Source of the DNA: an uncultured Ignavibacteriota bacterium
GTDB taxonomy: Bacteria; Bacteroidota; Ignavibacteria; UBA10030; BY39
Direction of reading: 5' to 3'
DNA length: 64,000 nt
Assembly: GCA_947085405.1 (NCBI GenBank)
Contig: CAMTWO010000024.1
Coordinates: forward strand, 579 to 64,578
Both the position numbers and the translations under genes were made by a program. Position 1 is the first letter of the stretch. Every line of letters starts with the position of its first letter. Below, in pieces: positions 5,947 through 25,752 of the stretch. The notes under the pieces were generated by a model that did no database searches, had not been told where the DNA came from, and saw only the letters and a program-made list of their open reading frames with translations.

Positions 5947-6022
5947 AAGATGGATACAAAAATTATTTGGAAAGAAAGTATCAAATAAAAAAATATCTAA
6001 CAACAAAAATAAAGGAATAACC

Positions 6023-6559
6023 ATGGGTAAAACACAAGATGTCGACAAAGCTCGACGAATACTTCCCACAAATGCTGCACCGGGAGTTGCTGAACTTAAC
6101 AGTAACTTCACTACAATAATCGCTTCGGTTAATCCTGAGACTGCCGGTGAAGATTGCACACCCGTAGAATGTGGTTCGGTTGCAGAGGTTGCAGCTAACT
6201 TCAAACCTAAAGTTGACCTCGAAATTAAAAAGCTCGACAAGTTAGGAGCCGATAAGGTCGAAGAATCAACCGCAACTGTAACGATGAACTACGGCGAAGA
6301 ACCATCGCAGATCATGGATGATTTCGGGGCTGAAAACATTGCCGTAAAAGCAAAATCTTCCGAAGGCGAAAGAGTTTTGCTCGATCAGCAGCTCTCGTAT
6401 CTTGCATTAGAGGATTTACAGGAGCGTTTAAAAGATCAAAAAGTAGCTCAACTCTTCCAGAACAACAAAGAAGCTTTAATTCAAACCCTCGAGGCAGAAA
6501 TTGAGCGGATGAAGAAATTGATCGAAGATGTAAAATTAGAATCTCTCGGTGGAGATTAA
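6023..6559 (+). CDS. Hypothetical protein with C-terminal coiled coil; possible TssB-like small sheath subunit
   Basis: ATG at 6023 preceded by AAAGGAATAA. The upstream in-frame ATG at 5930 overlaps the ATPase gene. The segment VTMNYGEEPSQIMDDFGAENIAVKA...LLDQQLSYLALEDLQERLKD resembles the TssB/VipA conserved core (LNF.SLADF.PD.V...L..L.ELR..L). Similarity is weak. Confidence 0.4.
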   Translation: MGKTQDVDKARRILPTNAAPGVAELNSNFTTIIASVNPETAGEDCTPVECGSVAEVAANFKPKVDLEIKKLDKLGADKVEESTATVTMNYGEEPSQIMDDFGAENIAVKAKSSEGERVLLDQQLSYLALEDLQERLKDQKVAQLFQNNKEALIQTLEAEIERMKKLIEDVKLESLGGD

Positions 6560-6611
6560 CTAAATAATTAATAACAAAACTATTAACAATAATCCTTAAG
6601 GAGAAATAACT

Positions 6612-7031
6612 ATGCCACAACCAAAATCTGTAAAGATCAGCGGGGTTGAAATAGACGAAGTCGAAGGTGTAACTCTGAATATTGATACACCCACCGGTCC
6701 AAGAGGAGACTATGATGGACGGACCTGTGCCGCAACTGTAGAATTATACAGACGAGCTCGCAACACACCGACAAGTGAGATGTTTAAACTTGCCACAAAT
6801 GAAGATGGTCGTTTAAAAATTATTGAAGGAACGATTGTTCTACAGGATGCCGAGCTTAAAGAAACATACACAATCGAGATGAAGGAAGCATACATAAGTA
6901 GTTGGGAATTCCATCAACCCCCCGAAGATACCGATATGTACGAAACGATAAAATTTAAAGTCGGTAAAATGTCGCTATCAGGCGGTGGAAAATCTAAAAC
7001 ATTCAGTGTTCCTGAATTTAAACGCAAGTAA
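6612..7031 (+). CDS. Contractile-system inner tube protein (Hcp / phage tail tube-like), paralog 1
   Basis: 139 aa, strong AAGGAG RBS. N-terminal pattern SVKISGVEIDEVEGVTLNIDTP resembles the tail-tube signature (F.V.IDG......V.GL). Clear paralog of the next gene (shared ATNEDGR, GTI, KVG..........GGKG). Confidence 0.5.
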   Translation: MPQPKSVKISGVEIDEVEGVTLNIDTPTGPRGDYDGRTCAATVELYRRARNTPTSEMFKLATNEDGRLKIIEGTIVLQDAELKETYTIEMKEAYISSWEFHQPPEDTDMYETIKFKVGKMSLSGGGKSKTFSVPEFKRK

Positions 7032-7049
7032 AGGAAAGGAGATAATAAA

Positions 7050-7469
7050 ATGATAAAAGATTATGCAATAAAACTAAACGGGGTTACAATCCCTAATGTT
7101 CAAGAAGTACGAGTGCGCATCGAAACACCCGGAGATTCACGTGGTATCTACAGAGAGCCAACCTTTGCTGCTACAATCAACATTACCCGTGATGCAAGCA
7201 ATAATGCAATCGTGGATGCGTTTGGTATGGCAACTAACGAAGACGGCAGGAAGAACATTCTTACGAGCGGTACTATCGAATGTCATGGTGACGATGTAAA
7301 AGATAACTATGCTTTCGAGATCAAGAAAGCTTTTATGTCACGATGGTCGCTTATTAATCCTATAAAACCCGAATTACCTACGCTTGAATCATTTGAAATA
7401 AAAGTTGGAGAATTAGATTATAAAGCTGGCGGTAAAGGTGCGAAATTTGCACTCAAAGCTTTTAAATAA
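7050..7469 (+). CDS. Contractile-system inner tube protein (Hcp / phage tail tube-like), paralog 2
   Basis: 139 aa, RBS AAAGGAG. About 35% identical to the 6612-7031 product across the full length. Confidence 0.5.
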   Translation: MIKDYAIKLNGVTIPNVQEVRVRIETPGDSRGIYREPTFAATINITRDASNNAIVDAFGMATNEDGRKNILTSGTIECHGDDVKDNYAFEIKKAFMSRWSLINPIKPELPTLESFEIKVGELDYKAGGKGAKFALKAFK

Positions 7470-7504
7470 AATTGAACAAATAAATATCATGAAAGGATAG
7501 AACC

Positions 7505-8935
7505 ATGCCAGATGAAAAAGATAAAACTCAGGTTCGTGAAACAACTGCTGTAGCTATAAAAACGAATGAACTCGCCGCTATACTTGGTCCAAAAACCGGG
7601 TCATTGCTTCCTGACGGAGTTGCACTAAAGATTTTACCCTCTGCAAAAGATTTCCCGATGGAAAATATGCAAACTTCTAAGGAGTCGGTCGCAAAGCCAC
7701 TGAAGATTACCCGCTCTAAAGCCGACGTAAACGCGGGCTATGTTTATCTTAAGCGATTAGAAGTGCTTAAAGATATGCTTGCCGGCGCGGCTGACCTTGC
7801 AACTCTGCGAGCTCGTGTAAAAGAAAGACGTGAAATGGTTTCTCAAGTATTCCAACAGAACATGGCAGCATTTTTTGCAAAACAACGTGGGCTGGAAAAA
7901 ACATACAGAGAACTCGACACGTTTTTCTATGAATCGCGCCTCAACCCGGGTGAAGCCGTAGCTTATGTCTCAATAGTCAATGCACACGCCGACCGTGATT
8001 TCAATGCGATAATGGATCCTGAAACGGGTCTTGCTGCAAGATTTCCTAACCGTGAAAACTTCGATATGAAAAGCTTAATCGGTATGTTTGTAATTCCGGA
8101 TTGGCCCGGAAGCGAAGCAAAACTTTCTAAGTATGGAGAACTTGCAAACCACAGTATGGCTCACCTCTTCTGCGGTTTCCCGGATATGTCAATTAAAGAA
8201 GCGCAAGAGTTGTTCGATGTTGGCGGTGATTTAGCTGAACTGAAATCTACAGACCCGATTAAACAACACATCTCCGTAGTTGCTAATCCGCTTAGAATAC
8301 GCCGTGCAAATCGCTTCGAGAAGGAACTTGGAGACTTTTATATTAACCCTGCAGGTATTCTTGCCGGTAAGATATACAAAGGCGATATCAAAGAAGGCAT
8401 CCATATTGCCCAGGCAAATAAACCACACGAAATAAAAATACCAACACCAGACGGCTCACCGTTAGAAATGAAGTGGAACATACGCGGTGGTCAGCAGATG
8501 AAGTTCAATAAAGCATTGATTCCTGTTGCATTTTATGAAGGACTTGTGTTCTGGGGTGTAGATACATTGTATTTAGCCGGCGGTCAAGGTGACGAAGGAA
8601 TGGACCAGTACACTGTAAAACGGTGCGATGAGTACATTGCTAAAGTTGTTCTACATTATCTCAACGGCCGCACATTCGTTCCAAATGAGCAGTCAAGCCG
8701 TGACCAGATTCAATCAGCAGTGCAAAAATTCCTGATGCACAACACCGGCGGTCCTGCAAAGATGCTTGAGTATGGTAAGGTTGACGGCGTTGAGGTAGTT
8801 ACCAATCCGGATGGCTCTGTGAACAATCAGGCAATTGATATTCGTATAAATGTTAAATACAAGAATGCGATACGCCAGTTGAACATGTTTCTGGTTTCTA
8901 CAGATTCAGAGCATTGGAAAGAAGGTAGTAAGTAA
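7505..8935 (+). CDS. Contractile sheath protein (TssC / phage sheath-like)
   Basis: 476 aa, the size of Bacteroidota-type TssC. Sits immediately downstream of the two tube genes and upstream of the spike and baseplate genes. Strong RBS GAAAGGA. Followed by two hairpin terminators. Confidence 0.55.
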   Translation: MPDEKDKTQVRETTAVAIKTNELAAILGPKTGSLLPDGVALKILPSAKDFPMENMQTSKESVAKPLKITRSKADVNAGYVYLKRLEVLKDMLAGAADLATLRARVKERREMVSQVFQQNMAAFFAKQRGLEKTYRELDTFFYESRLNPGEAVAYVSIVNAHADRDFNAIMDPETGLAARFPNRENFDMKSLIGMFVIPDWPGSEAKLSKYGELANHSMAHLFCGFPDMSIKEAQELFDVGGDLAELKSTDPIKQHISVVANPLRIRRANRFEKELGDFYINPAGILAGKIYKGDIKEGIHIAQANKPHEIKIPTPDGSPLEMKWNIRGGQQMKFNKALIPVAFYEGLVFWGVDTLYLAGGQGDEGMDQYTVKRCDEYIAKVVLHYLNGRTFVPNEQSSRDQIQSAVQKFLMHNTGGPAKMLEYGKVDGVEVVTNPDGSVNNQAIDIRINVKYKNAIRQLNMFLVSTDSEHWKEGSK

Positions 8936-8986
8936 TTTTTTAACCGTTCCTCCAAAGGGTGACAAGTAAAACGGTTAGTTAAACTA

Positions 8987-9014
8987 CTTAGTGTCCGTCA
9001 GTTGACGGACTAAG
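8987..9014 (+). terminator. Stem-loop (cttagtgtccgtca g ttgacggactaag) downstream of the sheath gene
   Basis: A perfect 8-bp core palindrome gtccgtca/tgacggac extended by ctta/taag, followed by a T-rich tract (ctctttgtg). Confidence 0.5.
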
Positions 9015-9123
9015 TGCTCTTTGTGAATAAGTGGTAACTGATGTTATGCATTCAAAGTTATCGTGTCTCAATAGCCCCGAACTTCACAGGTCGTGTGATA
9101 ACTGTAGGAACTCATCCCCCGAC

Positions 9124-9160
9124 CCCTTCTCTTGCCAAGAGAAGGGGGAATTGGATTTTT
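9124..9160 (+). terminator. Rho-independent terminator-like hairpin (ccccttctcttg/caagagaagggg) followed by a T-run
   Basis: A perfect 12-bp inverted repeat at 9124-9148, then gaattggattttt. This is the second hairpin in the 310-bp gap between the sheath and spike genes. Confidence 0.55.
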
Positions 9161-9245
9161 CTCCGCGGGGTTGAGTTCATTATATATACTTTTTACACAA
9201 CCCCTTAATAACTTACTATTTTATAATTAGATAATCAGGTGACTT

Positions 9246-11003
9246 ATGGCTTCTAAAGTAACTAATATAATTGTAACCGCTACAATAAATGGAAAGCCAC
9301 ACGGCTTGCGATTCGTAAACGCTAACGTGTGGCAATCGCTTTTTTCGCATTGCAAAATACGCCTTGCACTCGGATTCGATGAAGCGGAATGTAATTCTGT
9401 TTTCGATAAAGCGGTTTCCTCATGGCTCGGTGAAAAGTTAGAACTCACTGTTTCGGACCAATTAGATAACAGTATTTCTAAAAAATATATTGGCATCATT
9501 CACAACCTTCACCTCGAGACCGGTAATCTTATAGTCGATGCTATGTCGGAAGATTATTCTCTCAACTTCGTCGAGAAACATAAATCCTTCGTCGATATGT
9601 CTGCTTTCGATGTAGTGAATACAATTGTTAAAAATAAAACGTTTGCAAATTCCTTGACGGGACCGTCAAACGGAGTTCAGTTTCGGTTTTTGCACCAGTA
9701 TGACGAAACAGATTATGAATTCTTAAAGCGCCTCGCACGTTACGATGGCTGCGTCTTGTATCATGATGGCGAGACATTTAGATACGAACCAAAACTAAGC
9801 GGAACGAAGGAAATTAAATTAGGATTAGAAAATATTTCGGATGTCCGGCTTAATTGTTTTCTGGGAGATACGAGGTTCCACGGCGTTCCTTATGATTATC
9901 AGAAACATTCTGAGTCATCAGATTTGGTTGTAAACTCAGGAAGTTACCCGGCGCCTAATCATCCCTTTGGTTCAAAAATTTTCCAAAAATCAAATGACCT
10001 ACATAAAGAACCGACTGAAATTTACAAAGAGCCGATTGTGCAGAAAAGTGACTTTGAGAACTTTATTAAAAATCAGCAGGCATTTTACAGCGGACTGCAT
10101 ATCAACGTAACGGGGACAACAAATCATCCGATGGTTACAATCGGGCGTGCGATTGAGGCACCCGATCATCCGATATTGAAAGATAAGTTTGTAGTGGTGG
10201 AATTAGAAGCCGAATTTAAAGGTAATATTTACAGCGCATCATTCAAGGCAGCCGTTAAAGATTCTATCTTGCGAAAATTAGCCACCGACGAACGTGAATA
10301 CATGGGGCTTTTACAACCAGCGATAGTTGTCGATAATAAAGACCCTGAAAATATTGGCAGGGTGCAAATTCGTTACCTCTGGGATACGGATGGGAGTGCT
10401 CACGCTTGGGCTCGTGTGTTAACATCTTTTGCCGGTTCTGACCACGGCTCGCACCTAACTCCGCGAATATCAGATCAGGTTTTGGTTGGATGCGAACACG
10501 GCAACACATCGCTTCCGGTAGTCATCGGTTCACTTTATCACAGCGAAAACAAACCCGATTGTAAAACGGATAACGGCACCGAAGAAGTGCTGATTGCAAA
10601 AACTTCTTCCGGCTCGGAAATTCGAGTTATTGAAAAACAAGGTTCTGAGCAAATCTTGATCACTATGCCCAACGGTGAAAACCTGATACGGATGGAACAC
10701 AAAGGTCCCAAAATTTTCATCGAGTCGAACAATGGGACTATAGAGATTCACGCAAAAACGATAAAGATCAATGCCGATGATAAAATTGAAATGAAAGCTG
10801 ACAAAATTGAAATTTCAGCAACCTCCAAAGCCGAGATCAAAGCACAGGATATTGATGCGACGGCAGGTAATAAGCTATCTCTCGCTGGCTCATCTTCTGC
10901 CGAATTGAAATCGTCAGCATCAGTCAAAGTTAGCGGTACGCAAGTCGAATCTTCAGCAGCCGCAACTAACGTAATCAAAGGAGCAATGGTACAAATTAAT
11001 TAA
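9246..11003 (+). CDS. VgrG-like spike protein (gp27/gp5 hub fused to a C-terminal beta-helix)
   Basis: 585 aa. Central region RVQIRYLWDTDGSAHAWARVLTSFAGSDHGSHLTPRISDQVLVGCEHGNTSLPVVIGSLYH resembles the gp5 OB-fold / phage baseplate V / VgrG core. C-terminus carries repetitive beta-strand motifs (IEIHAKTIKINADDKIEMKADKIEISATSKAEIKAQDID...). Confidence 0.65.
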   Translation: MASKVTNIIVTATINGKPHGLRFVNANVWQSLFSHCKIRLALGFDEAECNSVFDKAVSSWLGEKLELTVSDQLDNSISKKYIGIIHNLHLETGNLIVDAMSEDYSLNFVEKHKSFVDMSAFDVVNTIVKNKTFANSLTGPSNGVQFRFLHQYDETDYEFLKRLARYDGCVLYHDGETFRYEPKLSGTKEIKLGLENISDVRLNCFLGDTRFHGVPYDYQKHSESSDLVVNSGSYPAPNHPFGSKIFQKSNDLHKEPTEIYKEPIVQKSDFENFIKNQQAFYSGLHINVTGTTNHPMVTIGRAIEAPDHPILKDKFVVVELEAEFKGNIYSASFKAAVKDSILRKLATDEREYMGLLQPAIVVDNKDPENIGRVQIRYLWDTDGSAHAWARVLTSFAGSDHGSHLTPRISDQVLVGCEHGNTSLPVVIGSLYHSENKPDCKTDNGTEEVLIAKTSSGSEIRVIEKQGSEQILITMPNGENLIRMEHKGPKIFIESNNGTIEIHAKTIKINADDKIEMKADKIEISATSKAEIKAQDIDATAGNKLSLAGSSSAELKSSASVKVSGTQVESSAAATNVIKGAMVQIN

Positions 11004-11183
11004 AAATTTAAAAAAAATCTAAATTCAAAACACTAAATTCTAAATTCCGAAGGAATCACTTAGTGACAAATCTTAAATTCAAATAACACAATATATGAAT
11101 TCGTTAAATATTAGTTACAGTATTTTGGGTTTTGAATATTCGAATTTGTTTCGGATTTCAAAATTAGAAATTAGAAATTATTT

Positions 11184-11636
11184 ATGGCAGTTTTACATAT
11201 TCCATTAACATTATCGCCAATCGGTACTTTTCAAAGGGCGAGTACTGAAGAGAATATAGTCGGTTCACGACTTCGATTATTTGTTCTATCGGGTGCTGGC
11301 GAATATCTCAAATTACCATCGCCGGGCATTCGTGCTATGTGGGTTCAATTCTACAATATGGGAATGAGCGCCCGCTTCTGCGATATTATGGAAGAAGACA
11401 GACGAAGATCTCTCGAACAGATTATTAAAGCCGAAGTGAACAATTGGTTTGGAGATATAGCGGAAATTCAGGATGTGAACTTGGTTGGTGATGAGCACGA
11501 AGAAAATGGAATTAAATTCCGCACCGAGAATAAAGAATATGTTTTTAAATTTAAGGTATCAAGAAGCGAAAAAGGACTGAAAGCAGGAACTGTAGGTCCG
11601 TGGAATATTATCGAGGAAACACATGACGTTCACTGA
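11184..11636 (+). CDS. gp25/TssE-like baseplate wedge protein (GPW_gp25 lysozyme-like fold)
   Basis: 150 aa. Matches the gp25 pattern I.GSRLRLFVLSGAGEYLKLPSPGI......F..........IIKAEVNNW (cf. i.qsi..iL.T..GER...P.fG......F......wEPR). Overlaps the next gene by 14 nt. Confidence 0.55.
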   Translation: MAVLHIPLTLSPIGTFQRASTEENIVGSRLRLFVLSGAGEYLKLPSPGIRAMWVQFYNMGMSARFCDIMEEDRRRSLEQIIKAEVNNWFGDIAEIQDVNLVGDEHEENGIKFRTENKEYVFKFKVSRSEKGLKAGTVGPWNIIEETHDVH

Positions 11637-13134
11637 TTTTAAATCACGTTTTATCAGTCAGTACAAGGGGGATATAAAAGATCCCATACTAACAACAATC
11701 CTACAAACTCTTGAAGCTTATCAGGAGGAAGTACAGGATCAACTCCTTTTATCAACCTATGCTCAACGGAGCGATCAGGTTTCCGACGGTTTGTTTGAAG
11801 TGCTTCGCCGTCATTTGTTTGGTCAGATGTTTCCGGGTCCGGCGTATGTTGTTCTGCAATCTACTTTGCGTGAGGTTAAAACTGCACAGCCGGTGTTATT
11901 GGAGCAAGCTCATTATTTCAACGTACAAGATAAGGAAGGGGCAAAAGTTCTATTCGCTCCTCAATACCCCGCTTGGATTGTTCCTGCCAACACGAACGAT
12001 GTTCGGGTTGATAGCTATGGCGACGACCTGATGCTTGGCTTTAGCATTTATATCGGTAATTTGCAAGACATCGAAAATGGTGAAGTAAGTATTTTCACAG
12101 GCGATATAGACCCGCTGCTGGTGGAACGACTCCGCTGCCGAATTACACAAACTACCGGTTTCAAAGTTATCGAAAATTCGAGGAAGTCAGTTATTAGAAC
12201 TAAATATCCGGGTAACTACAACATCATTGATGATTTCTTTCTCACACCTTATGAATCCCGCTTCATCAAAATTCCTTTCGATATTTTCATCGCCGCTTCA
12301 TCAAGTCGAGGAAAAGATGATATGATATGGATTCCTTTTCCGGGGCTTGGGGCTTTTGCACAAGAATTGGAAAAGAAACTCACACTCAATTCATTTCTTA
12401 CCTGGAATATGGTGGAGATGGAAGCTCTTGCGTTGCCAGTCGATCAATTCCGGTATAACATTCCGATTACCGCGCATAAGTCGAAGGAAACAATCATTAC
12501 TTCGGTTACAGACCTCGGCACAGACCCGCCGATTGAATACATAAACGCTGCTACAGTTATGGATCCGGGTTATCCGTTTCAATATACTACGTCGGTTGAT
12601 ATTCATAAAGATGAAATTGTTTTAGCTTTTTCTCCACCGCCTTCGGGCACAGTGAAAGTACAATATTGTCAGTACGATATTGGAGATGAATGCATCAACA
12701 TTGCATCAGGAAGAAGTTTCGGACTTTATCAAGGAATAGATGAAAGAGTAAAAAGCGCTCAATCGATTACTCCGACTCATCGTATCGAGGCTCTGAATAA
12801 CAAAGCACACATCTGGAATTATTTCAGATCGCTTCTTGCAAGCCGCCATCGCTGGTTAACTAAAGACGACTTGCGTGCAGCTATGATAGGTTATCCTCCA
12901 TTTAGCCATCGAAGTGATTTAGTTAACGCAAATGATATTTCATTTGAAGAAAAAGTCGGGCGTGTTAAAGGATTTTTAACTCCATTCACCGAAATAAATA
13001 TTCCTGTAAATGATGGTGGATTATTAGACGAGCCCGACAAAAGTTACTTCGAACAGCAAATAAGCGATTATATTAGAGGTAGAACAGTGAATGGTAATTT
13101 TATCAGAATAAAACTTGTATCTGCAGAAACATAA
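11623..13134 (+). CDS. Baseplate wedge protein (TssF / baseplate J / gp6-like), putative
   Basis: 503 aa. Position directly after gp25 and before the next wedge gene follows the TssE-TssF-TssG order. Translationally coupled at both ends (overlap at start, TAATG junction at end). No specific motif recognised. Confidence 0.4.
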   Translation: MTFTDFKSRFISQYKGDIKDPILTTILQTLEAYQEEVQDQLLLSTYAQRSDQVSDGLFEVLRRHLFGQMFPGPAYVVLQSTLREVKTAQPVLLEQAHYFNVQDKEGAKVLFAPQYPAWIVPANTNDVRVDSYGDDLMLGFSIYIGNLQDIENGEVSIFTGDIDPLLVERLRCRITQTTGFKVIENSRKSVIRTKYPGNYNIIDDFFLTPYESRFIKIPFDIFIAASSSRGKDDMIWIPFPGLGAFAQELEKKLTLNSFLTWNMVEMEALALPVDQFRYNIPITAHKSKETIITSVTDLGTDPPIEYINAATVMDPGYPFQYTTSVDIHKDEIVLAFSPPPSGTVKVQYCQYDIGDECINIASGRSFGLYQGIDERVKSAQSITPTHRIEALNNKAHIWNYFRSLLASRHRWLTKDDLRAAMIGYPPFSHRSDLVNANDISFEEKVGRVKGFLTPFTEINIPVNDGGLLDEPDKSYFEQQISDYIRGRTVNGNFIRIKLVSAET

Positions 13135-13985
13135 TGGACGAGAAAGAAAAAATAGAAATACCACTTCAGATTGCTTCACTTGAAGACCTCCTGCCAATTG
13201 GACTGCTCGATAAAGATGAATCGGTTGGGACTTCAAATGCCGTAAAAGCATTGCGTATAATTGAACGGCTTATACAAGATGCGGGCTTGAACAGCATGGA
13301 GCATTCACGTTACGCTCTTCTGCAATCTTTTCCTCGCCTGTTTGCTGATAGAGACGGACAAACTTTCGAGACGCTGCACGAAGATATTCCCGATTATGTT
13401 CGCCAATATACCGCAGCGTTATGCCCTGAATGGTACTCAGATTTCATCTCATCTCTATCCGATGACCAAGCTGAAGTATTTCTGAAGAATTATGTCCATG
13501 CTCATGAAACTTGGGGACATCCGGAGGGAATAGCGACTCTTGTTCGAACGATGTTAGAAAGTTCAACTCAGTTTCCTGTCCCCGTCGTAGTGAAAAAATT
13601 AGAATATCAGGAGCGACCAATCCCGGATGAACTTCAGTCTAAATTAGGTGCGAAGGATAATTATTCAATAATCGGAAAAAATTTTGTTCTCGGCAAAAAA
13701 TTCAAGTCGCGCCCTAAATATTATAACATCATAATCGGACCGATAAATGTTAGAACGCTTGAAAAATTCCAGGAAGCGGGTTGGGCTGAGGATGCAAATG
13801 CAAGTAAAAAATTGTACCGGCTTGTAGAATTTGCCGAGCCGTTTTATTTTCACGCTCGTATTCAAATCCTGTTAGAAACCGCAGGATTCGTACTGGGACG
13901 AGCATCCATAGGAAAAGACCGATTGGGTATTGTTGAAAGTGAATTGGAAGAATATGTTGATACTTTGTTTGGCGTTAAAGGTTAA
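13134..13985 (+). CDS. Baseplate wedge protein (TssG / gp7-like), putative
   Basis: 283 aa. TAATG start overlap with the upstream gene. Assignment rests on gene order only. Confidence 0.3.
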   Translation: MDEKEKIEIPLQIASLEDLLPIGLLDKDESVGTSNAVKALRIIERLIQDAGLNSMEHSRYALLQSFPRLFADRDGQTFETLHEDIPDYVRQYTAALCPEWYSDFISSLSDDQAEVFLKNYVHAHETWGHPEGIATLVRTMLESSTQFPVPVVVKKLEYQERPIPDELQSKLGAKDNYSIIGKNFVLGKKFKSRPKYYNIIIGPINVRTLEKFQEAGWAEDANASKKLYRLVEFAEPFYFHARIQILLETAGFVLGRASIGKDRLGIVESELEEYVDTLFGVKG

Positions 13986-14014: not shown

Positions 14015-14665
14015 ATGGGACAACCAGCCGCACGTATAAGCGACATGCACGTATGCCCGATGGTAACACCGGGCGTTCCGCCAATTCCACATGTTGGTGG
14101 TCCTATTACTGGACCAGGAGTTCCTAACGTACTAATCGGTGGTATGCCTGCCGCTGTAATGGGCGATATGGCAACATGTGTGGGTCCACCGGATACTATT
14201 CTTAAAGGTTCGGTAGGTGTTCTGATTGGTGGCAAACCCGCTGCACGAATGGGCGATACTTGCGCACACGGCGGCACAATCGTTCTCGGATGTCCGACTG
14301 TTTTGATTGGCGAAGTGATGCCTGGCGCACCACCTGTTATTGTGCCACCTTTCGCTGTGCCGGTTCAGCCGGAAATGAAATCAAGCGAGAAAAAAACTAC
14401 TTCCCCAACTCCACCATCCAAAAAAGCTGAACAGAAACCTACTAAGAAAGAAGAAAAAAAGAAAACCGATTGGATTGAAGTAGAAGTAACAGATGAAGAT
14501 GGAAAACCGATGATAGGTGAAAAATATGAGATTGAGTTGCCAGACGGCTCTATTAAAAGAGGTGTTATTGATGCAAAAGGTAAAATTAAATTAGAGGGCG
14601 TTGAACCCGGAACTTGCAAAATTACTTTTCCTGAAATTGATTCTGAAGAATGGGAAATAAAATAA
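14015..14665 (+). CDS. PAAR-repeat spike-tip protein with Lys/Pro-rich linker and ~70-aa C-terminal beta domain
   Basis: The N-terminal 100 aa are a classic PAAR domain (PAARISDMHVCP..., GGMPAAVMGDMATCVGP, GGKPAARMGDTCAHGG). This is followed by KKTTSPTPPSKKAEQKPTKKEEKKK and a small domain (KYEIELPDGSIKRGVIDAKGKIKLEGVEPGTCKITF). Confidence 0.85.
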   Translation: MGQPAARISDMHVCPMVTPGVPPIPHVGGPITGPGVPNVLIGGMPAAVMGDMATCVGPPDTILKGSVGVLIGGKPAARMGDTCAHGGTIVLGCPTVLIGEVMPGAPPVIVPPFAVPVQPEMKSSEKKTTSPTPPSKKAEQKPTKKEEKKKTDWIEVEVTDEDGKPMIGEKYEIELPDGSIKRGVIDAKGKIKLEGVEPGTCKITFPEIDSEEWEIK

Positions 14666-15337
14666 TTGGAGCTATACATGAGCAAGGTACACATAGTAAA
14701 ACAAGGTGAGTGTTTAGCGAGCATTGCAAAGAAGAATGAGTTTAAAAATTGGAAAACTATTTATGAACATCCAGATAATAAAGATTTAAAAAATAAGAGG
14801 CCAAATCCAAATATTTTGTTCCCGGGCGATAGGATTATTATACCCGATAAATCGTTAAAGCAAGCAAATATAGAAACCAATGGAAAATACAAAATTAAGA
14901 TTAAGACGCAAAAAGTACAATTTAGAATTTACTTAAAAGATAGAAAAGGAAAACCTATAGCAAATAAGAATTATGAATTAATGATTGATAATCGAACATT
15001 TTACGGAACGACCGGTTCAAAGGGGTTAATAGAAAGAGAAATATCGGAAGATGCTGACGTTGGATATTTAACTGTAGAGATTAATGAACCACCATATAGT
15101 GAGAAATATAGTTGGAAAATTAAGATCGGAAATCTTGATCCAGCAGATGAAATCAGCGGAATACAAGCTCGTTTAAACAACTTAGGGTTTTCCTGCGGCA
15201 CTGTTGATGGTATCATTGGACAAAAAACGAAGGATGCATTAAAAGCTTTTCAACGGAGTTATAACATAGAACCAACGGGGAAAATTGATAATACTACAAA
15301 GAAGAAAATAGAAGATATTCATGACCAAAAAAGTTGA
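14666..15337 (+). CDS. LysM-domain plus peptidoglycan-binding (PG_binding_1) domain protein
   Basis: N-terminal LysM (KVHIVKQGECLASIAKKNEF...ILFPGDRIIIP). C-terminal PG_binding_1 (IQARLNNLGFSCGTVDGIIGQKTKDALKAFQRSYNIEPTGKID). Starts immediately after the PAAR gene stop. Confidence 0.75.
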   Translation: MELYMSKVHIVKQGECLASIAKKNEFKNWKTIYEHPDNKDLKNKRPNPNILFPGDRIIIPDKSLKQANIETNGKYKIKIKTQKVQFRIYLKDRKGKPIANKNYELMIDNRTFYGTTGSKGLIEREISEDADVGYLTVEINEPPYSEKYSWKIKIGNLDPADEISGIQARLNNLGFSCGTVDGIIGQKTKDALKAFQRSYNIEPTGKIDNTTKKKIEDIHDQKS

Positions 15338-15346
15338 TTGTATTAT

Positions 15347-16375
15347 ATGAGTAACAATGAAGCATTAATTTCTCGAGTATCATCAGACTCATCTGAAGCT
15401 AATACCTTGGTGCCAACAGCATACGAAAACCGCTTAATTGTTGTAGCACAAGGTATCGAACGTCAGGATAAAGATTTTGTTGGTGAGGACGAGATTTACC
15501 GAATACCTAATTATTTAAGAAATAGGATATCTGGATTGTTATTTAGTTCTGAAACTTTTGGCACTTACGTAAGTCATGAACAAGGCGTAATTTTTAATAT
15601 AAGTATTGTGACAAAGAAAGATGAATACAAATCATTTCTTGAAACGCCTGGAGTTCATGTTGTTTATAGCGGTCATGCGCGGTATGGTAGAGGACCTTGT
15701 TTTGGAGATGACCATGGACCAGGAGAAGATTGGGAAAATGGTACAGATCCTATGAGAACTGGATTATACAGAATAGGTTATCCTTACATTGCAATTTCAT
15801 TAGAAGATATTCCTCATCATCAGTACACTGCAAATGTGATTCCGGCGTCTGAGGTAATATCGAAGAATGAATGTCATCCCGATCTTAAACGAGCGTATTC
15901 GCGTTTGCGAACTTACAGTATTAATAACTTAGATCCAAGTGGTGTACTTATTAACCATGTAGCAGGTTCATTTAGCCCAGAAGATAGAATATGGGCAATT
16001 AAAGGATCTGTAGGCGGTCACCGTGGGACTCATCTTGTCCTTCGTGCCGGCTGGGAAAACACAGTTAGTTCACCAATGGACCTTGGTGCTACAAATATTC
16101 AGTGTCGTGTATTTTGTCATTTTGGGTGTAGTACATTCAAACATAATTATCGAATATTACGATTCGAAAAATATTGGAGAAGAACTGACACAGATCGGTT
16201 TGCGTTTTGGACAACTGCTCCTTCATACTTCATTGCGACTCGGTTTTGGCTTGTTAGGATATTGACCTATCCTAAATATAATGCTTTCGAATCATGGAAG
16301 CCTAGTTTAGATTATGCTGTTAAACGCACAAATCAGGATTTGAGAAGTATAGGACATACATATCGAATAATATAA
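15347..16375 (+). CDS. Hypothetical protein; candidate cargo/effector (His/Cys-containing region GHARYGRGPCFGDDHGPGED, C-terminal hydrophobic segment)
   Basis: ORF follows directly after the LysM gene. ATG at 15347 (a TTG at 15338 is also in frame). No recognisable family; the effector role is inferred from position only. Confidence 0.45.
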   Translation: MSNNEALISRVSSDSSEANTLVPTAYENRLIVVAQGIERQDKDFVGEDEIYRIPNYLRNRISGLLFSSETFGTYVSHEQGVIFNISIVTKKDEYKSFLETPGVHVVYSGHARYGRGPCFGDDHGPGEDWENGTDPMRTGLYRIGYPYIAISLEDIPHHQYTANVIPASEVISKNECHPDLKRAYSRLRTYSINNLDPSGVLINHVAGSFSPEDRIWAIKGSVGGHRGTHLVLRAGWENTVSSPMDLGATNIQCRVFCHFGCSTFKHNYRILRFEKYWRRTDTDRFAFWTTAPSYFIATRFWLVRILTYPKYNAFESWKPSLDYAVKRTNQDLRSIGHTYRII

Positions 16376-16421
16376 TGTTAAATTATGTAAAAACATTTTT
16401 TAAAAATGGTAAGTTTGGAGC

Positions 16422-17099
16422 GTGTTTATGATAACTTCTAAAATTTCTAAAAATTACAATTTTTTATTTTCTACGATTTTAATGCTACTTATTCTTAGTG
16501 GATGCGAACAAAATATTGAAAGGAGAAAAAATATGACTAAAGATCAAGTAATTGAAAGATTAAAACAAATAGATGAGAAACAATATGCAATAATAGATTT
16601 CCTTGCAGATTCATTATTGAATGATATAAGAGAGAAAGTTACCGCAGTTTCATCCTGCTGGCTTGATCCAGATAAGAACCTATCTTCTAATGCTGCAATG
16701 TTAATTAGTCAACTAGACGAAATTGCAATCATTCCGTTAATGAACACCAGTGTTCCCGAAAGCATCACAAAAAGAGTCTGGCTAATTCACACTATAACAG
16801 AAGCTGAGTTGGAATTGCGGGAAAAACTAATTGCTTATCTCGACAAGATGTTAGAAGATAAGTCGTCAGTTCTGATTCCAGAGCCCATCGGAAGAGAAGA
16901 AGAGTTACCCAAGCCACGGCGTGTTTGTGACGAAGCTTATATGCAAATGAGGCGATTATTAAATACATCAGAAAAAGTTGAAGAATATTACCTTAATGTG
17001 GATGCTTACTTAGATTTAACAGATGATGAAAAAGATAAAGAGATTTCAAAAGTGAAAAAAGCACGAGTATGGAAGAAATTTATCGAAGATTTCGATTAA
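16422..17099 (+). CDS. Lipoprotein (signal peptide plus lipobox LSGC); possible immunity protein
   Basis: N-terminus MFMITSKISKNYNFLFSTILMLLILSGC has a type II signal peptide. 46 bp downstream of the candidate effector. Confidence 0.5.
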   Translation: MFMITSKISKNYNFLFSTILMLLILSGCEQNIERRKNMTKDQVIERLKQIDEKQYAIIDFLADSLLNDIREKVTAVSSCWLDPDKNLSSNAAMLISQLDEIAIIPLMNTSVPESITKRVWLIHTITEAELELREKLIAYLDKMLEDKSSVLIPEPIGREEELPKPRRVCDEAYMQMRRLLNTSEKVEEYYLNVDAYLDLTDDEKDKEISKVKKARVWKKFIEDFD

Positions 17100-17132: not shown

Positions 17133-17561
17133 ATGCAAGTACATTTCAGCGGACATATAACAGCTCCCTCGCCCCAGAAGGTAAGTGAAAGTGACCTTAT
17201 GGCTTTAATGCCTAATGAACGCAGGGGTTGTTTCGTTTATTCAGTGAGAGTTGAATTTCCGGAAAATAATTTGGCTGTCATGTTTACACCCTCAATTTTT
17301 ATAAACAAATCCCTCAGCAATAATGAAGCGAGCGAAGTAGAAACACATGAAAGACGGCATTTTGAGGATTTCCGCCGTCTTGCAAGAGAATTGAAGGCAG
17401 ATATAGAAGATGCAATAGAGGCAGGTAAAGATCCTGAAATCCGTACCCGTTTAGAGTGGTTCGACTATGATAATTGTATCGCGAGACAGAGTAGGCACAA
17501 TGAAGAGGGTATTACTGATATTTTACCCTGTATACAACCCTTTTCCTCGAGACCTATTTAG
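17133..17561 (+). CDS. Hypothetical protein
   Basis: 142-aa ORF with no recognisable motif. Confidence 0.3.
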   Translation: MQVHFSGHITAPSPQKVSESDLMALMPNERRGCFVYSVRVEFPENNLAVMFTPSIFINKSLSNNEASEVETHERRHFEDFRRLARELKADIEDAIEAGKDPEIRTRLEWFDYDNCIARQSRHNEEGITDILPCIQPFSSRPI

Positions 17562-17642: not shown

Positions 17643-20159
17643 TTGGATATATTGGTAGTTATTTTAATATTGGGAATTTTAACCGGTATTCTTGCTGGGG
17701 TATATTTTTTTAAACGTCGAAAAGTTACGGTTAAACTTTCTACCGACGAATTTAATCTATTAACGAGAAAATATTTTGACAGGTATGAATTACGCTCTTT
17801 TCTTGTGCGCGGCGACTTTAATACGACATACGAGGCATTCGACACCGAAAAAAATAAAACAGTATTGATTCGCGTACTTCATAAAAAACTCATCTATAAC
17901 GACAACGTTGCACAGCAATTTCAGTTTAAAGCTGAAATGTTAAAATATCTAGCGGAACGTTTCCCCGGAAAACTATTCCTACAAAATATTCGCTTCGGTA
18001 CCACATACGTTGACGATGAACCGCGTCCATTCATAGTAACTGATTTGATACACGGCGTTTCATTAGCTGAAGTGCTCGATAAACAAAACCGCCTTTCCCC
18101 CAACGACGCAATAAAAATAATCAACCAAATTGGAAAAGCTATTTCGGCTGCTCATAGCCAGAGAATCTGGATTCGCGATTTAGCGCCCGGAAACATTATC
18201 TTAAGTTTAGATGACGGCGGGAATTTAGTTGTCACGCTCGCTAACATCGGAGTCCCATTTAAAAATCTTCCTTCCGACGAAGCCGTACAATTCAAGCAAG
18301 GTTACTATTCTCCCGAGGACAAACGCGGAGAATCAGTTAACGAACAATCCGACGTTTATGCACTAGCTGCTTTGATGTTTAAAATGTTAGAAGGATACGA
18401 CCTCTCGTTCCGCAACGAAGGTGAGCCGTGGTCGGGAATTACCTCCGTGCTCGAAAATGCGTTAATGAACGACCCGCACAAACGCCCGTCTTCAGTTGAG
18501 AACTTTTTGAAAACAACAAATTCTATTCTCACTTTTAAATCGAATGTTAAGGATATGCGATGGAGTGTTGTGATTCCACAAATTTTAAAAGGACATACAA
18601 CAGTAAAGGTAAAATCGTCAGGACAAGAAACTATTGCACGAAAAGCCCCCGGGCGAGGTGTTGGTATTCCGATGTCCAAACAGACAAAAGAAAAAGTTTC
18701 TCATTCTTTACTAACCGGATTAGCAACGGCAATTATTTTTTGGTTTGGTAAAAAAATTGAATCTGTGCTTTCGAGTCCCAAAAAAGCAATAAGAGTAGCT
18801 ACAATTAGTATAGTAGCATTAGCAGTTGGATTGTGGTATTTTGTTTTTTCTCCCGATAAAACTACAATTTCAGTTTTTACCGAACCGCCGGGAGCCGTTG
18901 TTACGGTAAACGATGCACCAAGTGGAAAAAACACACCTCTTGAAAACTTCACTGTCGATGTTGGTAAATTATCAATAAAAGTTCACAAAAAAGATTTCTT
19001 CGCAGCCGAAACTTCTATCGTTACCAGCGAAGGACAGCATACAGAGTTGAATTTTAACCTAAAACCATCCGGGACATTATCGATTTCTGTAATGCCTCCC
19101 GACGCGATTGTAGTAGTAAATAAAGATACGATTCCACCTTTCCAACTTGGGAGTGTTGAACGGTCGGTTGGTAAGCATCGGATTACTGTGTTGCATTCCG
19201 TTTACGGCGAGAAGTCCGAAGATGTAGATTTAAAACAGGGAGAAAATAAAAATCTTCGATATAATCTCGCACCCACAGGTGGGGCTGCTCTGGTGGAAAG
19301 GTTGATAATTAATTCTGAACCTTCAGGAGCTTCGGTATTTATCGGCGAAATGGAGATCGGAAAAACTCCATACAGAGATAGTCTTATTCAACCGGGTTAT
19401 CACAAAATTAAAATCGTTGTCGGACCTGACTTTGAAGATTACGAACAGGTCGTTAGAATTATTGGAAATAAACCTGTAACAATCGAAGCTAAATTATCCC
19501 CCGCCGGATTTATTAATATATCTTCACAACCGGGCGGTGTTCCGGTATTTATGGACGGAAAAGAGATTGGAGTTACACCGGTAACAAACCAGAAGGTTGC
19601 ATCGGGCAGACATAGATTTAAAATGCAAAAGGATGGATTTAAAGATTTCGACACGACAGTAAACATATCGCAAAAACAATCTTACACTATAAGTAAAAAT
19701 TTAGTCCCGATGATCGGTAAGCTGAAACTGCGTGCAAAACCTTACGGCTCAATTTATATAGACGACCAACTGAAAAAATCGGATACTGATACTCCGTTTA
19801 ATATTGAAGTTCCATCCGGAACGCGTAAAATAAAAATTACACACCCGAAATACGGAACTTGGGAAAAATCAGTAAATATTAAAACTGAAGAATCGCTCGA
19901 AATTTTAGTCGATTTTGATAAAATCTATACTCTAACGATTACTGCTTTTGACGATGCCGGAAGCCCACTCCGTGCCGAAATATTTGTAGATGATAAATCG
20001 GAGGGTAAACAAACGCCATCGCAAATTAAAGTTCGGAGCGGATTGCATAAAATTGAAGTCCGTTTGGATGGTTACACGCTATTAGATGGGGCGAAAACTA
20101 TTAACTTTGAAAAGGATTTTGATCAGCCATTAAAATTCACACTCAAAAAAGGAAAATAG
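17643..20159 (+). CDS. Membrane protein with a degenerate Ser/Thr kinase-like domain (predicted pseudokinase) followed by six PEGA domains
   Basis: TTG start. N-terminal TM segment. Kinase-like core retains IRDLAPGN (HRDLKPxN-like) and SPE...DVYALAALMF, but the VAIK lysine is replaced (VLIRVL), there is no GxGxxG loop, and the DFG triplet is LAN. A second hydrophobic span (~aa 360-395) is followed by six repeats of the PEGA pattern (e.g. SEPSGASVFIGEMEIGKTPY, SQPGGVPVFMDGKEIGVTPV). Confidence 0.7.
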   Translation: MDILVVILILGILTGILAGVYFFKRRKVTVKLSTDEFNLLTRKYFDRYELRSFLVRGDFNTTYEAFDTEKNKTVLIRVLHKKLIYNDNVAQQFQFKAEMLKYLAERFPGKLFLQNIRFGTTYVDDEPRPFIVTDLIHGVSLAEVLDKQNRLSPNDAIKIINQIGKAISAAHSQRIWIRDLAPGNIILSLDDGGNLVVTLANIGVPFKNLPSDEAVQFKQGYYSPEDKRGESVNEQSDVYALAALMFKMLEGYDLSFRNEGEPWSGITSVLENALMNDPHKRPSSVENFLKTTNSILTFKSNVKDMRWSVVIPQILKGHTTVKVKSSGQETIARKAPGRGVGIPMSKQTKEKVSHSLLTGLATAIIFWFGKKIESVLSSPKKAIRVATISIVALAVGLWYFVFSPDKTTISVFTEPPGAVVTVNDAPSGKNTPLENFTVDVGKLSIKVHKKDFFAAETSIVTSEGQHTELNFNLKPSGTLSISVMPPDAIVVVNKDTIPPFQLGSVERSVGKHRITVLHSVYGEKSEDVDLKQGENKNLRYNLAPTGGAALVERLIINSEPSGASVFIGEMEIGKTPYRDSLIQPGYHKIKIVVGPDFEDYEQVVRIIGNKPVTIEAKLSPAGFINISSQPGGVPVFMDGKEIGVTPVTNQKVASGRHRFKMQKDGFKDFDTTVNISQKQSYTISKNLVPMIGKLKLRAKPYGSIYIDDQLKKSDTDTPFNIEVPSGTRKIKITHPKYGTWEKSVNIKTEESLEILVDFDKIYTLTITAFDDAGSPLRAEIFVDDKSEGKQTPSQIKVRSGLHKIEVRLDGYTLLDGAKTINFEKDFDQPLKFTLKKGK

Positions 20160-23759: not shown

Positions 23760-23856
23760 TATTTTTTAATGACTCACTAATATTCAATAAATACAAGAAT
23801 AACTATATGAATGATCTTGAAATTAATAATATAAAAATAGATTGGAGGGTGATATT

Positions 23857-25752
23857 ATGAAATATAAATATAAAATAATACTCGGACTTATATTAGTCTG
23901 TATTAGTTATAAATCGTTTTCACAAACGCAATTATCGACATCAACACAAAGTAACGCTGGCGGTGTTTCTTCAAGTGGAGCTTTTACACTAACATCCACT
24001 TTCGGCCAACCATCACCTATCGGTATCGGTGTAAGCGGACAAATTAATTCTTCAAGCGGCTACATTTATCAAGCTACATTAGATGCTACTGCACCGACTA
24101 TCTCATTAGCTTCTATATCTCCTCCGGTAGCTGCTCAGCAGGTTACAGTCGTATTTACAGTAACTGATTTATCCGGCGTGGCAAATGCAACGTTGTTCTA
24201 TCGGCGGGGCGGCGATCAAACATTCACACCACTCACATTAACTAAAACAGTTAATAACTTTGATGGCGTTATTCCAGCAAGCTCCGTTACCTCTCGCGGT
24301 TTAGAATTTTATGTTACCGCTGCAGATGTTTATAATAACATTGCACGTTTTCCGGTTAGCAATATTTATTCTGCACAAGTTGCTGTTTTAGGTGGAGTTA
24401 CAAAACCAACAGCTCAACCTGCCGGCAGCGAACAAAATGCATATCGGCTGATTTCCCTACCAATAAGTGCAACTAATAAAACTCCCAACGCAGTATTGGA
24501 AGACGATTTAGGCGGCTACAATAATACCAAATGGCGGTTTTTTGAATTGAAGGATGGAAAATTACCTTACGTTGAGTTTGGAAATACATCGCAAATGCTT
24601 CCGGGAAAATCTTTCTGGCTGATTGTAAAGGAAGCTGGCAAGGTTATAAATACCGGTGCGGGTACTTCAAATTTCACACATAGAACTTATCCCATTCAGT
24701 TAGATACAGGTTGGACGTTCATCGGAAATCCATTTGACTTTGATATTCCGCTTGGTAATTTAGTTCGGAAAAGTGGCAGTGCTTTGGACCTGCGTAGTTA
24801 CTTTGGAAGCTGGTCAAATTATAGCAGTGCATTAATTCCGTTTGAGGGATATGCTGTCTCTAATTTATCGGGTTCGGTGGATACTCTTTTTGTAAATCCT
24901 AATATAGGTGTCCCCATACCATTAAAACAAGATGCCGAAAAATCAGAAGATGTTATCTGGAAAATAAAAATATTAGCAGAATGTAAAGACGCTAAAGATG
25001 ATGATAATGAAATAGTTATATCTCAGTCGGCAAAGGTTGATTATGATGAGTTAGACAAACCCGAACCGCCCGTAATCGGCGAATTTGTGTCTGTCTATTT
25101 TCCTCGCTCGAACTGGGGAAAGATATTGGATAAATTCTGCGTTGATGCCCGACCGAATCCTGCGGATGGGGCGGACTGGGAATTCGAAGTTCTCAGTAAT
25201 ATCGAAGATAAAATTGATTTGAAATTTGATGGATTGGAAAATATACCGCTTGAAACCGAAGTTGTGTTGATAGATAAGCTGATAAAATCGACTCAAGATT
25301 TGAAACAATCGGATAAATACTCTTTTACGAATATATCCAAAACTAATCCACGAAAGATGAACATATTAGTTGGAAGTCAATCATTTATTCAAAATAAACT
25401 AACAGAAATTGGGGCGATACCATCTGAATTCGAGCTATCCCAAAATTTCCCCAACCCGTTTAATCCTACTACTGTTATCCGATATGGCTTGCCTAATGCT
25501 GCTCACGTAACTATCAAAATTTATGATCTACTCGGACAAGAAATTATAACACTTGTGGATGAAGCACAAGAGAAGGGTTATCGTTCGGTTGAGTGGAATG
25601 GAAAAAATAGTTTGGGTACTGATATCGCCAGCGGATTATCCTCCAAAGGCGGATACGCCTCTGGCGTATATTTCTACAGGATTGAAGCATCTGATATACA
25701 AAATCCGGGTAATAAATTTGTACAAGTGAAAAGGATGCTCCTCCTACGCTGA
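23857..25752 (+). CDS. T9SS-sorted secreted protein (C-terminal Por sorting domain)
   Basis: Signal peptide MKYKYKIILGLILVCISYKSFSQ. C-terminus FPNPFNPTTVIRYGLP...KIYDLLGQEIITLVDE...VYFYRIEA...KRMLLLR. GGAGGG RBS. Confidence 0.75.
   Translation: MKYKYKIILGLILVCISYKSFSQTQLSTSTQSNAGGVSSSGAFTLTSTFGQPSPIGIGVSGQINSSSGYIYQATLDATAPTISLASISPPVAAQQVTVVFTVTDLSGVANATLFYRRGGDQTFTPLTLTKTVNNFDGVIPASSVTSRGLEFYVTAADVYNNIARFPVSNIYSAQVAVLGGVTKPTAQPAGSEQNAYRLISLPISATNKTPNAVLEDDLGGYNNTKWRFFELKDGKLPYVEFGNTSQMLPGKSFWLIVKEAGKVINTGAGTSNFTHRTYPIQLDTGWTFIGNPFDFDIPLGNLVRKSGSALDLRSYFGSWSNYSSALIPFEGYAVSNLSGSVDTLFVNPNIGVPIPLKQDAEKSEDVIWKIKILAECKDAKDDDNEIVISQSAKVDYDELDKPEPPVIGEFVSVYFPRSNWGKILDKFCVDARPNPADGADWEFEVLSNIEDKIDLKFDGLENIPLETEVVLIDKLIKSTQDLKQSDKYSFTNISKTNPRKMNILVGSQSFIQNKLTEIGAIPSEFELSQNFPNPFNPTTVIRYGLPNAAHVTIKIYDLLGQEIITLVDEAQEKGYRSVEWNGKNSLGTDIASGLSSKGGYASGVYFYRIEASDIQNPGNKFVQVKRMLLLR

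Follow-up and report, generated by a model that had tools for sequence, protein, structure and literature searches.

The discovery of type VI secretion system (T6SS) effectors has so far centred on Proteobacteria. In the closest described systems, LysM and PG_binding_1 domains occur in vgrG loci either as stand-alone proteins or as fusions (Wang et al. 2023, Commun Biol, PMC10673891). Experiments in the same study demonstrated that the downstream effector needs the stand-alone LysM protein to bind VgrG, as in Ketobacter alkanivorans, where the gene order is VgrG, LysM protein (Kalk_10460), effector (Kalk_10455) and immunity protein (Kalk_10450). The same order of spike gene, stand-alone LysM (and PG_binding_1) gene, effector and immunity gene is found in the DNA analysed here, a stretch of 64,000 nucleotides (hereinafter, the window) from contig CAMTWO010000024.1 of an uncultured Ignavibacteriota bacterium. 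Four co-directional genes located directly downstream of tssG encode a PAAR protein, a LysM/PG_binding_1 protein, a candidate effector (EFF) and a candidate immunity lipoprotein (IMM); such a combination of a spike tip carrying an extension, a LysM/PG_binding_1 helper, a cargo effector and an immunity protein is a known architecture. There are, however, several differences: the directly upstream spike partner in the window is a PAAR protein with an extension of its own rather than VgrG; LysM, a beta-sandwich and PG_binding_1 are joined in the helper; and the effector comes from a different, uncharacterised family. The original prediction was that EFF and the lipoprotein may form an effector–immunity pair acting on the cell wall. 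We consider it very probable that EFF and IMM indeed constitute a T6SS effector–immunity module, whereas the target requires a more cautious assessment. The module occupies positions 14015-17099 of the window and comprises the following features:

14015..14665, + strand: PAAR spike-tip protein, 216 aa (PF05488, E 2e-23, aa 25-90)
14678..15337, + strand: LysM – beta-sandwich – PG_binding_1 protein, 219 aa (public gene call from ATG 14678; open reading frame from TTG 14666)
15347..16375, + strand: EFF, 342-aa candidate effector without a signal peptide (open reading frame from TTG 15338, from which EFF residues are numbered)
16428..17099, + strand: IMM, 223-aa candidate immunity lipoprotein (alternative GTG start at 16422)
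16521..16535, + strand: internal Shine-Dalgarno-like AGGAG (16521-16525), 7-nt spacer and ATG 16533-16535 (Met38) within the IMM gene

The genes are tightly packed, with gaps of 30 bp between tssG and the PAAR gene, 12 bp between the PAAR and LysM genes, 9 bp between the LysM gene and EFF, and 52 bp between EFF and IMM. No terminator-like site was detected between the four genes, and a promoter/terminator scan returned nothing above the shuffled expectation.

Evidence for the effector–immunity assignment comes from related loci. We collected 53 genome loci containing EFF relatives and several metagenome contigs, and counted 54 non-redundant loci; their six-frame open reading frames (ORFs) were annotated using hidden Markov models (HMMs) derived from the window together with the first loci, the marker HMMs being crude. 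An IMM homologue adjoins EFF in 53 of the 54 loci; in the single exception (L007), EFF is cut short by the contig start. IMM genes outnumber EFF genes (78 versus 59 in total). In one locus (L005), EFF and IMM are each present as three tandem paralogues, and three IMM per EFF are encoded in several Acidobacteria. A gene for VgrG, PAAR, DUF4280, ClpV or TssC is present within 10 kb in 27 of the 54 loci, and in many of them EFF is separated from the spike gene by just one or two genes. The adjacency, the surplus of IMM, the tandem arrays and the T6SS linkage all point to an effector–immunity pair rather than to a structural part, in line with the initial proposal of a spike-linked pair. An IMM conserved in the absence of EFF was not seen, every detected IMM lying in the neighbourhood of an EFF gene in these loci, which were selected by EFF. 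On the other side of the balance, half of the related loci contain no T6SS gene within 10 kb, as judged with the crude marker HMMs.

The family is both large and broadly distributed. A word-seeded search yielded 199 homologues of EFF, nearly all of them 330-420 aa long and with E-values down to 1e-238, and 7 homologues of IMM, with E-values down to 1e-126; given hundreds of EFF homologues and such E-values for both proteins, the module is not a chance assembly. At 50% identity, the EFF family comprises about 250 clusters, and the EFF-IMM pair is spread over some ten phyla, including Acidobacteriota, Myxococcota, Planctomycetota, Gemmatimonadota, Zixibacteria, Ignavibacteria, Bacteroidota and Verrucomicrobiota. 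Among species-representative genomes, the closest EFF is encoded by an Abditibacteriales metagenome-assembled genome (63% identity; L007). On the contig common to P0005 and P0122, EFF and IMM are 51% and 46% identical to their counterparts in the window, respectively; these values, together with the difference in the number of word-seeded homologues (7 versus 199), suggest that IMM diverges faster than EFF.

Close linkage to the secretion machinery could also be accounted for if EFF, IMM and the LysM/PG_binding_1 protein were a housekeeping accessory set of the T6SS, with EFF, as a regulated enzyme of peptidoglycan remodelling, opening the wall of the producer for assembly of the apparatus and IMM acting as a regulator. 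TagX or MltE open the producer's own wall for this purpose in other systems. Indeed, EFF-IMM is fixed immediately upstream of clpV-tssC-hcp-vgrG in the loci of the Ignavibacteria, Zixibacteria and Bacteroidetes types (L036, L040, L042, L044, L046, L048, L049), and peptidoglycan-binding domains are found nearby. However, EFF and the LysM protein lack signal peptides, which places the periplasm of the producer out of reach by Sec, and the module is also found in loci lacking any T6SS core gene within 10 kb (L003, L011, L013, L014, L016, L021). Furthermore, EFF paralogues in tandem and an excess of IMM genes are what toxin/immunity arrays typically show, and the EFF family is absent from most T6SS loci. 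We therefore regard a housekeeping role as improbable and prefer to interpret EFF and IMM as a toxin and its immunity protein.

What kind of toxin EFF might be is suggested by its predicted fold. As originally noted, the protein, 342 aa rather than the 343 aa stated, contains a His/Cys motif, GHARYGRGPCF, which was confirmed by translation; its N-terminus is hydrophilic and disordered. EFF has no match in Pfam, NCBIfam or PADLOC. An exhaustive search with the EFF profile against 1.84 billion cluster representatives gave 249 matches, 200 of them below 1e-10, and no bridge to other families, so that the EFF family appears as a closed island. In the structural model, EFF is predicted to adopt an alpha/beta fold of the caspase-hemoglobinase (clan CD-like) type, with the following order of elements: strand, helix, strand, helix, strand 106-111, His113, a long insertion, strand 258-262, Cys264, helix, strand, helix. 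In clan CD enzymes, the catalytic His and then the catalytic Cys are located at the ends of consecutive core strands, positions that His113 and Cys264 appear to occupy in the EFF model. These two candidate catalytic residues (codons 15674-15676 and 16127-16129, respectively) are invariant, in 280 of 280 and 287 of 287 sequences, among 302 unique family members. The motif highlighted in the original prediction does contain an invariant His113, along with an invariant Cys121, but the likely nucleophile, Cys264, belongs to another motif, HFGCS. An enzyme-like predicted fold, the invariant His and Cys and the presence of a paired partner led us to reject the alternative that EFF belongs to the baseplate or to a fibre.

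The invariant Cys and His residues could, in principle, serve a different purpose, binding a metal in an inert scaffold or binding protein. The Cys-rich motif C-x3-C-x3-C-x4-H (CRVFCHFGCSTFKH), formed by C256, C260, C264 and H269, resembles a metal-binding site, and no peptidase profile matches EFF. Nevertheless, about 20% of the members have Ala or Ser instead of Cys260, and Cys256 and His269 are not invariant either, whereas His113 and Cys264, at the apparent clan CD positions, are conserved throughout. This pattern favours the His113/Cys264 dyad over a Cys-cluster metal site, and given the variability of Cys260 we rejected the cluster as the key functional site. A dedicated and rapidly diverging partner also fits an active toxin better than an inert protein, making the scaffold explanation quite improbable.

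Several observations weigh against the peptidase interpretation and have to be considered alongside the predicted fold. A Foldseek search of the EFF model against the PDB yielded nothing below E 0.1, the matches being limited to generic Rossmann-like GTPases and nucleosidases, and searching all PDB sequences with the EFF profile (hmmsearch) produced only chance matches to nanobodies. Alignment with human caspase-3 (sequence entered by hand) using hhalign gave a probability of 0.3%. A lenient Pfam scan of 44 EFF members (E<=10) detected no peptidase family, those of clan CD (Peptidase_C13, C14, C11, C25, CHAT and others) included, the only domain found being LysM, on three fused members. Finally, the insertion of about 145 residues between His113 and Cys264 is far longer than in known clan CD enzymes. 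In view of these negative profile and Foldseek results and of the unusual spacing, we describe EFF as a protein that may work like a clan CD cysteine peptidase but do not assign it to any clan CD family; cysteine-peptidase chemistry is nonetheless the option that we moderately favour. Compared with the established members of the clan (caspases, metacaspases, gingipains, clostripain, legumain, separase and CHAT), EFF thus differs in lacking detectable profile similarity, in the long insertion, and in having 'GHA' in place of the usual 'HG'.

A related precedent is Tox-Caspase, a class of caspase-fold peptidase toxins defined in silico, for which T6SS is among the delivery routes and Imm36 is the immunity family (Zhang et al. 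2012, PMC3482391). EFF resembles this class in the predicted caspase-type peptidase fold, the putative dedicated immunity family and the proposed delivery route. However, Tox-Caspase domains are the C-terminal parts of large polymorphic toxins paired with Imm36, whereas EFF, a candidate cargo protein, stands alone, consists of a single domain and is accompanied by another immunity family that lacks annotation; neither EFF nor IMM matches anything in Pfam, the Tox and Imm families included. A caspase-like fold has so far been proposed for T6SS toxins in silico only, and in the literature searched we found no experimentally characterised clan CD antibacterial T6SS effector.

A caspase-like protease accompanied by an inhibitor might alternatively represent an intracellular defence or abortive-infection pair that merely resides next to a T6SS. 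We consider this very improbable: a PADLOC search returned no match for any of five proteins, no sensor domain is present, and many IMM homologues are lipoproteins. In addition, EFF is found repeatedly beside VgrG, PAAR or DUF4280 and LysM recruitment genes, and LysM–EFF fusions exist.

The predicted recruitment gene upstream of EFF provides an additional link to secretion. The original description of this gene as a fusion of LysM with PG_binding_1 proved accurate: PG_binding_1 is matched with an E-value of 3e-15, and LysM, which scores below the cut-off in the whole protein (19.2 versus 20.9 bits), passes it when the N-terminal fragment is searched alone (23.1 bits, E 7e-5). The protein has no signal peptide. 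A LysM/PG_binding_1 homologue is located directly upstream of EFF in 25 of the 54 loci and anywhere in the locus in 33. In P0027, P0043 and P0100, LysM is fused to the N-terminus of EFF, the fused domain of P0027 being homologous to the stand-alone LysM of the window (E 2e-16), and L005 encodes a PAAR–PG_binding_1 fusion. This alternation between stand-alone and fused LysM matches the pattern reported by Wang et al. (PMC10673891), by analogy with which the LysM/PG_binding_1 gene is best read as a recruitment adaptor or a co-secreted helper of a known kind.

The helper is not restricted to EFF. LysM/PG_binding_1 paralogues also precede unrelated putative cargo, namely, a Reprolysin-like protein, an OmpA-like/PG_binding_1 protein, a calcineurin-like phosphoesterase (Metallophos), a PLD-containing island and proteins without an assigned family. 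The OmpA-like/PG_binding_1 protein, of about 460-540 aa, recurs after a LysM/PG_binding_1 paralogue in L001 (3782-5155), L019 (8441-9946), L026 (1600-3228, minus strand) and L063 (6198-7694); the next protein in L001 and L063 has a length of 430-490 aa and, in the case of L063, is an enzyme of the PLD type. This set looks like a second conserved cargo cassette served by the same helper family.

In the loci of the Ignavibacteria, Zixibacteria and Bacteroidetes types, no LysM/PG_binding_1 homologue was found upstream of EFF, and in most of them the helper position is occupied by an ORF of about 300 aa with a weak match to the VgrG HMM, which may be an alternative adaptor. The only one of these proteins that was read, encoded in L042 (9048-9953; 301 aa), is rich in beta structure; its last part is a small PG-x-Y-x-I-x-FP domain comparable to the C-terminus of the window PAAR protein, and a comparable domain also terminates the 373-aa PAAR protein of the same locus, suggesting that this domain is a docking element. 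The ORFs of about 297 aa in L040, L043, L045, L046 and L057 were seen as weak VgrG-HMM matches only.

The organisation of the PAAR protein in the window is compatible with such docking. Its PAAR domain scores 82.8 bits, compared with the Pfam gathering cut-off of 27, and is followed by a Pro/Lys-rich linker, PGAPPVIVPPFAVPVQPEMKSSEKKTTSPTPPSKKAEQKPTKKEEKKK (about aa 105-152), and a C-terminal beta domain of about 65 aa, in agreement with the linker and extra small beta domain recognised at the outset. The C-terminal domain has sub-threshold Pfam matches only, to CarboxypepD_reg (E 3e-3; 18.4 bits versus the cut-off of 32.3) and to prealbumin-like SpaA (E 0.02; 15.6 versus 23.1 bits). Judging from these matches, the domain is probably of the prealbumin/transthyretin-like type, and we regard it as a putative cargo-docking domain. 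It had also been proposed that the LysM protein has, in its middle part, a beta domain in common with the PAAR extension; a single pairwise BLASTP comparison (12/41 identities, E 3e-4) lends this idea weak support, and the similarity probably reflects a common beta-sandwich type with a D-x-x-G-x-P turn. In enteroaggregative Escherichia coli, Tle1 reportedly loads on a transthyretin-like C-terminal domain of VgrG1, and PAAR proteins with transthyretin-like extensions are known as well. In each case, a small beta-sandwich on a spike component docks a separately encoded cargo effector, although the domain in the window, unlike that of VgrG1, sits on PAAR and is recognisable only weakly, and its docking role is putative.

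The immunity candidate has the features of a lipoprotein. As predicted, it follows EFF closely, starting 46 bp (from the GTG) or 52 bp (from the ATG) after the EFF stop codon. Its N-terminus, MFMITSKISKNYNFLFSTILMLLILSGC, consists of a charged K/K n-region, a hydrophobic h-region, FLFSTILMLLIL, and the lipobox LSGC, with the lipobox Cys at 16503-16505; lipoproteins were called by a pattern ([LVI][ASTVI][GAS]C) rather than with a dedicated predictor. Comparable lipobox-type signals are found in about 20 IMM homologues. IMM has no match in Pfam, NCBIfam or PADLOC, and its AF2 model is all-helical and of low confidence (pLDDT 61). The motif RRVCDEAY is invariant among its eight closest relatives, with variants such as RACDEAY in distant paralogues. 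Several clan CD enzymes are Arg/Lys-specific, which makes it conceivable, as a speculation, that IMM inhibits EFF as a pseudo-substrate.

A second start appears to be embedded in the IMM gene. The Met at the start of the domain, corresponding to Met38 in the window, is retained in 21 of the 24 signal-bearing homologues, and in 14 of these 21 a Shine-Dalgarno-like GGAG/AGGAG is located 6-10 nt upstream, compared with 13% of the other internal Met codons in the same loci. Signal-less IMM homologues start exactly at this boundary (MTxxEL…). The residue following the Met is usually Thr, so that removal of the initiator Met is expected in signal-less IMM and a structural reason for retaining it is unlikely. 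From this pattern we infer that many signal-bearing IMM genes yield both an exported and a cytosolic isoform. Lipoprotein-type IMM with an in-frame boundary Met were noted in L001, L009, L019, L029, L032, L039, L042-L044, L046, L048, L054 and L057, as well as in the window. Two short contigs assigned to archaeal metagenome-assembled genomes (L037 and L041, binned as 'uncultured archaeon' and Bathyarchaeota) encode EFF and an IMM with an additional N-terminal domain of about 100 aa; an archaeal EFF-IMM would be noteworthy if true, but the assignment is probably due to mis-binning.

The distribution of IMM types bears directly on where EFF acts. At least one IMM with a lipobox or a signal peptide is encoded in about 29 loci, including the window, and about 21 loci encode signal-less IMM only; acidobacterial modules combine two signal-less IMM genes with a signal-bearing one. 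Periplasmic action, as initially suggested, fits the lipoprotein of the window, whereas the loci with signal-less IMM alone are a poor fit to a purely periplasmic effector and, at about 40% of the total, leave cell-wall targeting unproven. The cell-wall proposal itself was derived from the LysM/PG_binding_1 neighbour, which proved to be weaker evidence than first assumed: its published role is loading onto VgrG (PMC10673891), and it also stands before unrelated cargo. It still offers some support, given that the LysM-linked T6SS toxins surveyed in the same study were mostly peptidoglycan hydrolases (Lyz_like, NlpD, NLPC_P60). On balance, we put forward the cell wall as EFF's target only tentatively, with less than even confidence.

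The same effector–immunity module could instead act on a cytoplasmic target, either a protein or soluble cell-wall precursors, with the LysM/PG_binding_1 protein serving purely as a loading adaptor. The loci with signal-less IMM alone, starting at the domain boundary, speak for this alternative, and the IMM gene of the window retains the internal Shine-Dalgarno and ATG for a cytosolic form. Likewise, the LysM-associated effector Kalk_10455 is toxic upon expression in E. coli, and the demonstrated role of the LysM protein is that of a bridge to VgrG (PMC10673891). However, the loci with lipoprotein or signal-peptide IMM, the prevalence of peptidoglycan hydrolases among LysM-linked toxins (PMC10673891), and the PG_binding_1 and OmpA-like domains that pervade these islands all argue against it, and we consider an exclusively cytoplasmic target to be possible but doubtful.

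Exported and cytosolic forms of IMM would point to a need for protection in both compartments. EFF might already be active before export, or its target might be present on both sides of the membrane, as would be the case for stem peptides and their precursors. Tle3 of Pseudomonas aeruginosa, a periplasm-acting effector, is in part a precedent for an effector with distinct partners in the cytoplasm and in the periplasm: it needs a periplasmic immunity protein, Tli3, and a cytoplasmic helper, Tla3, which acts before spike loading (Berni et al. 2019, PMC6560169). The families are unrelated, and the window may employ two isoforms of one gene, whereas in Acidobacteria signal-bearing and signal-less paralogues may fill the two roles. 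In its most far-reaching form, which we judge rather unlikely, EFF would be the first characterised caspase-type (clan CD-like) antibacterial T6SS effector, acting on a peptide that is accessible on either side of the inner membrane, such as the stem peptides of the cell wall and their cytoplasmic precursors; if so, immunity would be required in two compartments, provided by two paralogues in some lineages and by one dual-start gene here.

Taken as a whole, these observations are likely explained by a T6SS cargo end composed of the PAAR protein, the LysM/PG_binding_1 adaptor, a clan CD-like EFF and its immunity protein. The PAAR protein would sharpen the VgrG spike, with its linker and C-terminal beta domain offering a docking site, and the signal-less LysM/PG_binding_1 protein, possibly co-secreted, would couple EFF to the spike. 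As a cargo effector of a previously undescribed family, EFF, folding like a clan CD (caspase/gingipain/metacaspase-type) cysteine peptidase, would most likely cleave a peptide bond in the recipient cell, in a cell-wall peptide or a protein, via the His113/Cys264 dyad. IMM, the putative cognate immunity protein, would be an outer-leaflet or periplasmic lipoprotein in this organism, probably with an additional cytosolic isoform initiated at the internal Shine-Dalgarno and ATG, so that EFF would be neutralised, presumably by direct binding, prior to its export as well as once sister cells have delivered it. EFF-IMM defines an unannotated candidate effector–immunity family that is broad across phyla and has an unusual predicted fold. 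With it, the principle of recruitment through LysM/PG_binding_1 proteins would be extended to cargo linked to PAAR and to those T6SS loci in which TssC matches PF17541. Given the conserved internal start within the lipoprotein gene, IMM also offers a case in which immunity in two compartments from one gene can be tested directly.

Upstream of the four-gene module, the window encodes a T6SS core operon on the + strand (3715 to 13985), composed as follows:

3715-5946, + strand: ClpV-type ATPase
5930-6559, + strand: 209-aa ORF in the TssB position, without a family match
6612-7031, + strand: 139-aa ORF in the Hcp position, first of a tandem pair, without a Pfam/NCBIfam match
7050-7469, + strand: 139-aa ORF in the Hcp position, second of the tandem pair, without a Pfam/NCBIfam match
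7505-8935, + strand: TssC, matching PF17541
9246-11003, + strand: VgrG
+ strand: 150-aa ORF in the TssE position, without a family match
+ strand: 503-aa ORF in the TssF position, without a family match
13134-13985, + strand: TssG

The proteins in the Hcp, TssB, TssE and TssF positions were not recognised, indicating that current models cover the T6SS of the window poorly.

Downstream of IMM lie genes that are not parts of the T6SS, namely, a 142-aa ORF and genes for a PEGA-repeat Ser/Thr kinase, for TPR proteins and for several proteins bearing type IX secretion tails. An HExxH motif (THERRH) is present in the 142-aa ORF (17133-17561, + strand), which adjoins IMM. Pfam, NCBIfam and PADLOC gave no family match for it, and none of the 54 related loci encodes a homologue, for which reason it was rejected as a member of the module. 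The ORF is found in other contigs of the same organism (L060-L062) and may represent either an orphan gene or a small, strain-specific cargo resembling a metallopeptidase. A Ser/Thr protein kinase is encoded just 3′ of EFF-IMM in three distant lineages (window 17643-20159, + strand; L007 869-2458; L063 16203-17807) and might regulate the T6SS post-translationally in the manner of PpkA. The kinase of the window carries six PEGA repeats; that of L063 is fused to an FGE-sulfatase domain, which, judged by eye, the L007 kinase appears to share. Finally, several large proteins flanking the T6SS of the window have C-terminal sorting domains of type IX secretion (Por_Secre_tail / CHU_C), a trait indicative of the Fibrobacteres-Chlorobi-Bacteroidetes group; they are encoded at 41-3676, 23842-25752, 27223-28599 and 29000-30976 on the + strand.

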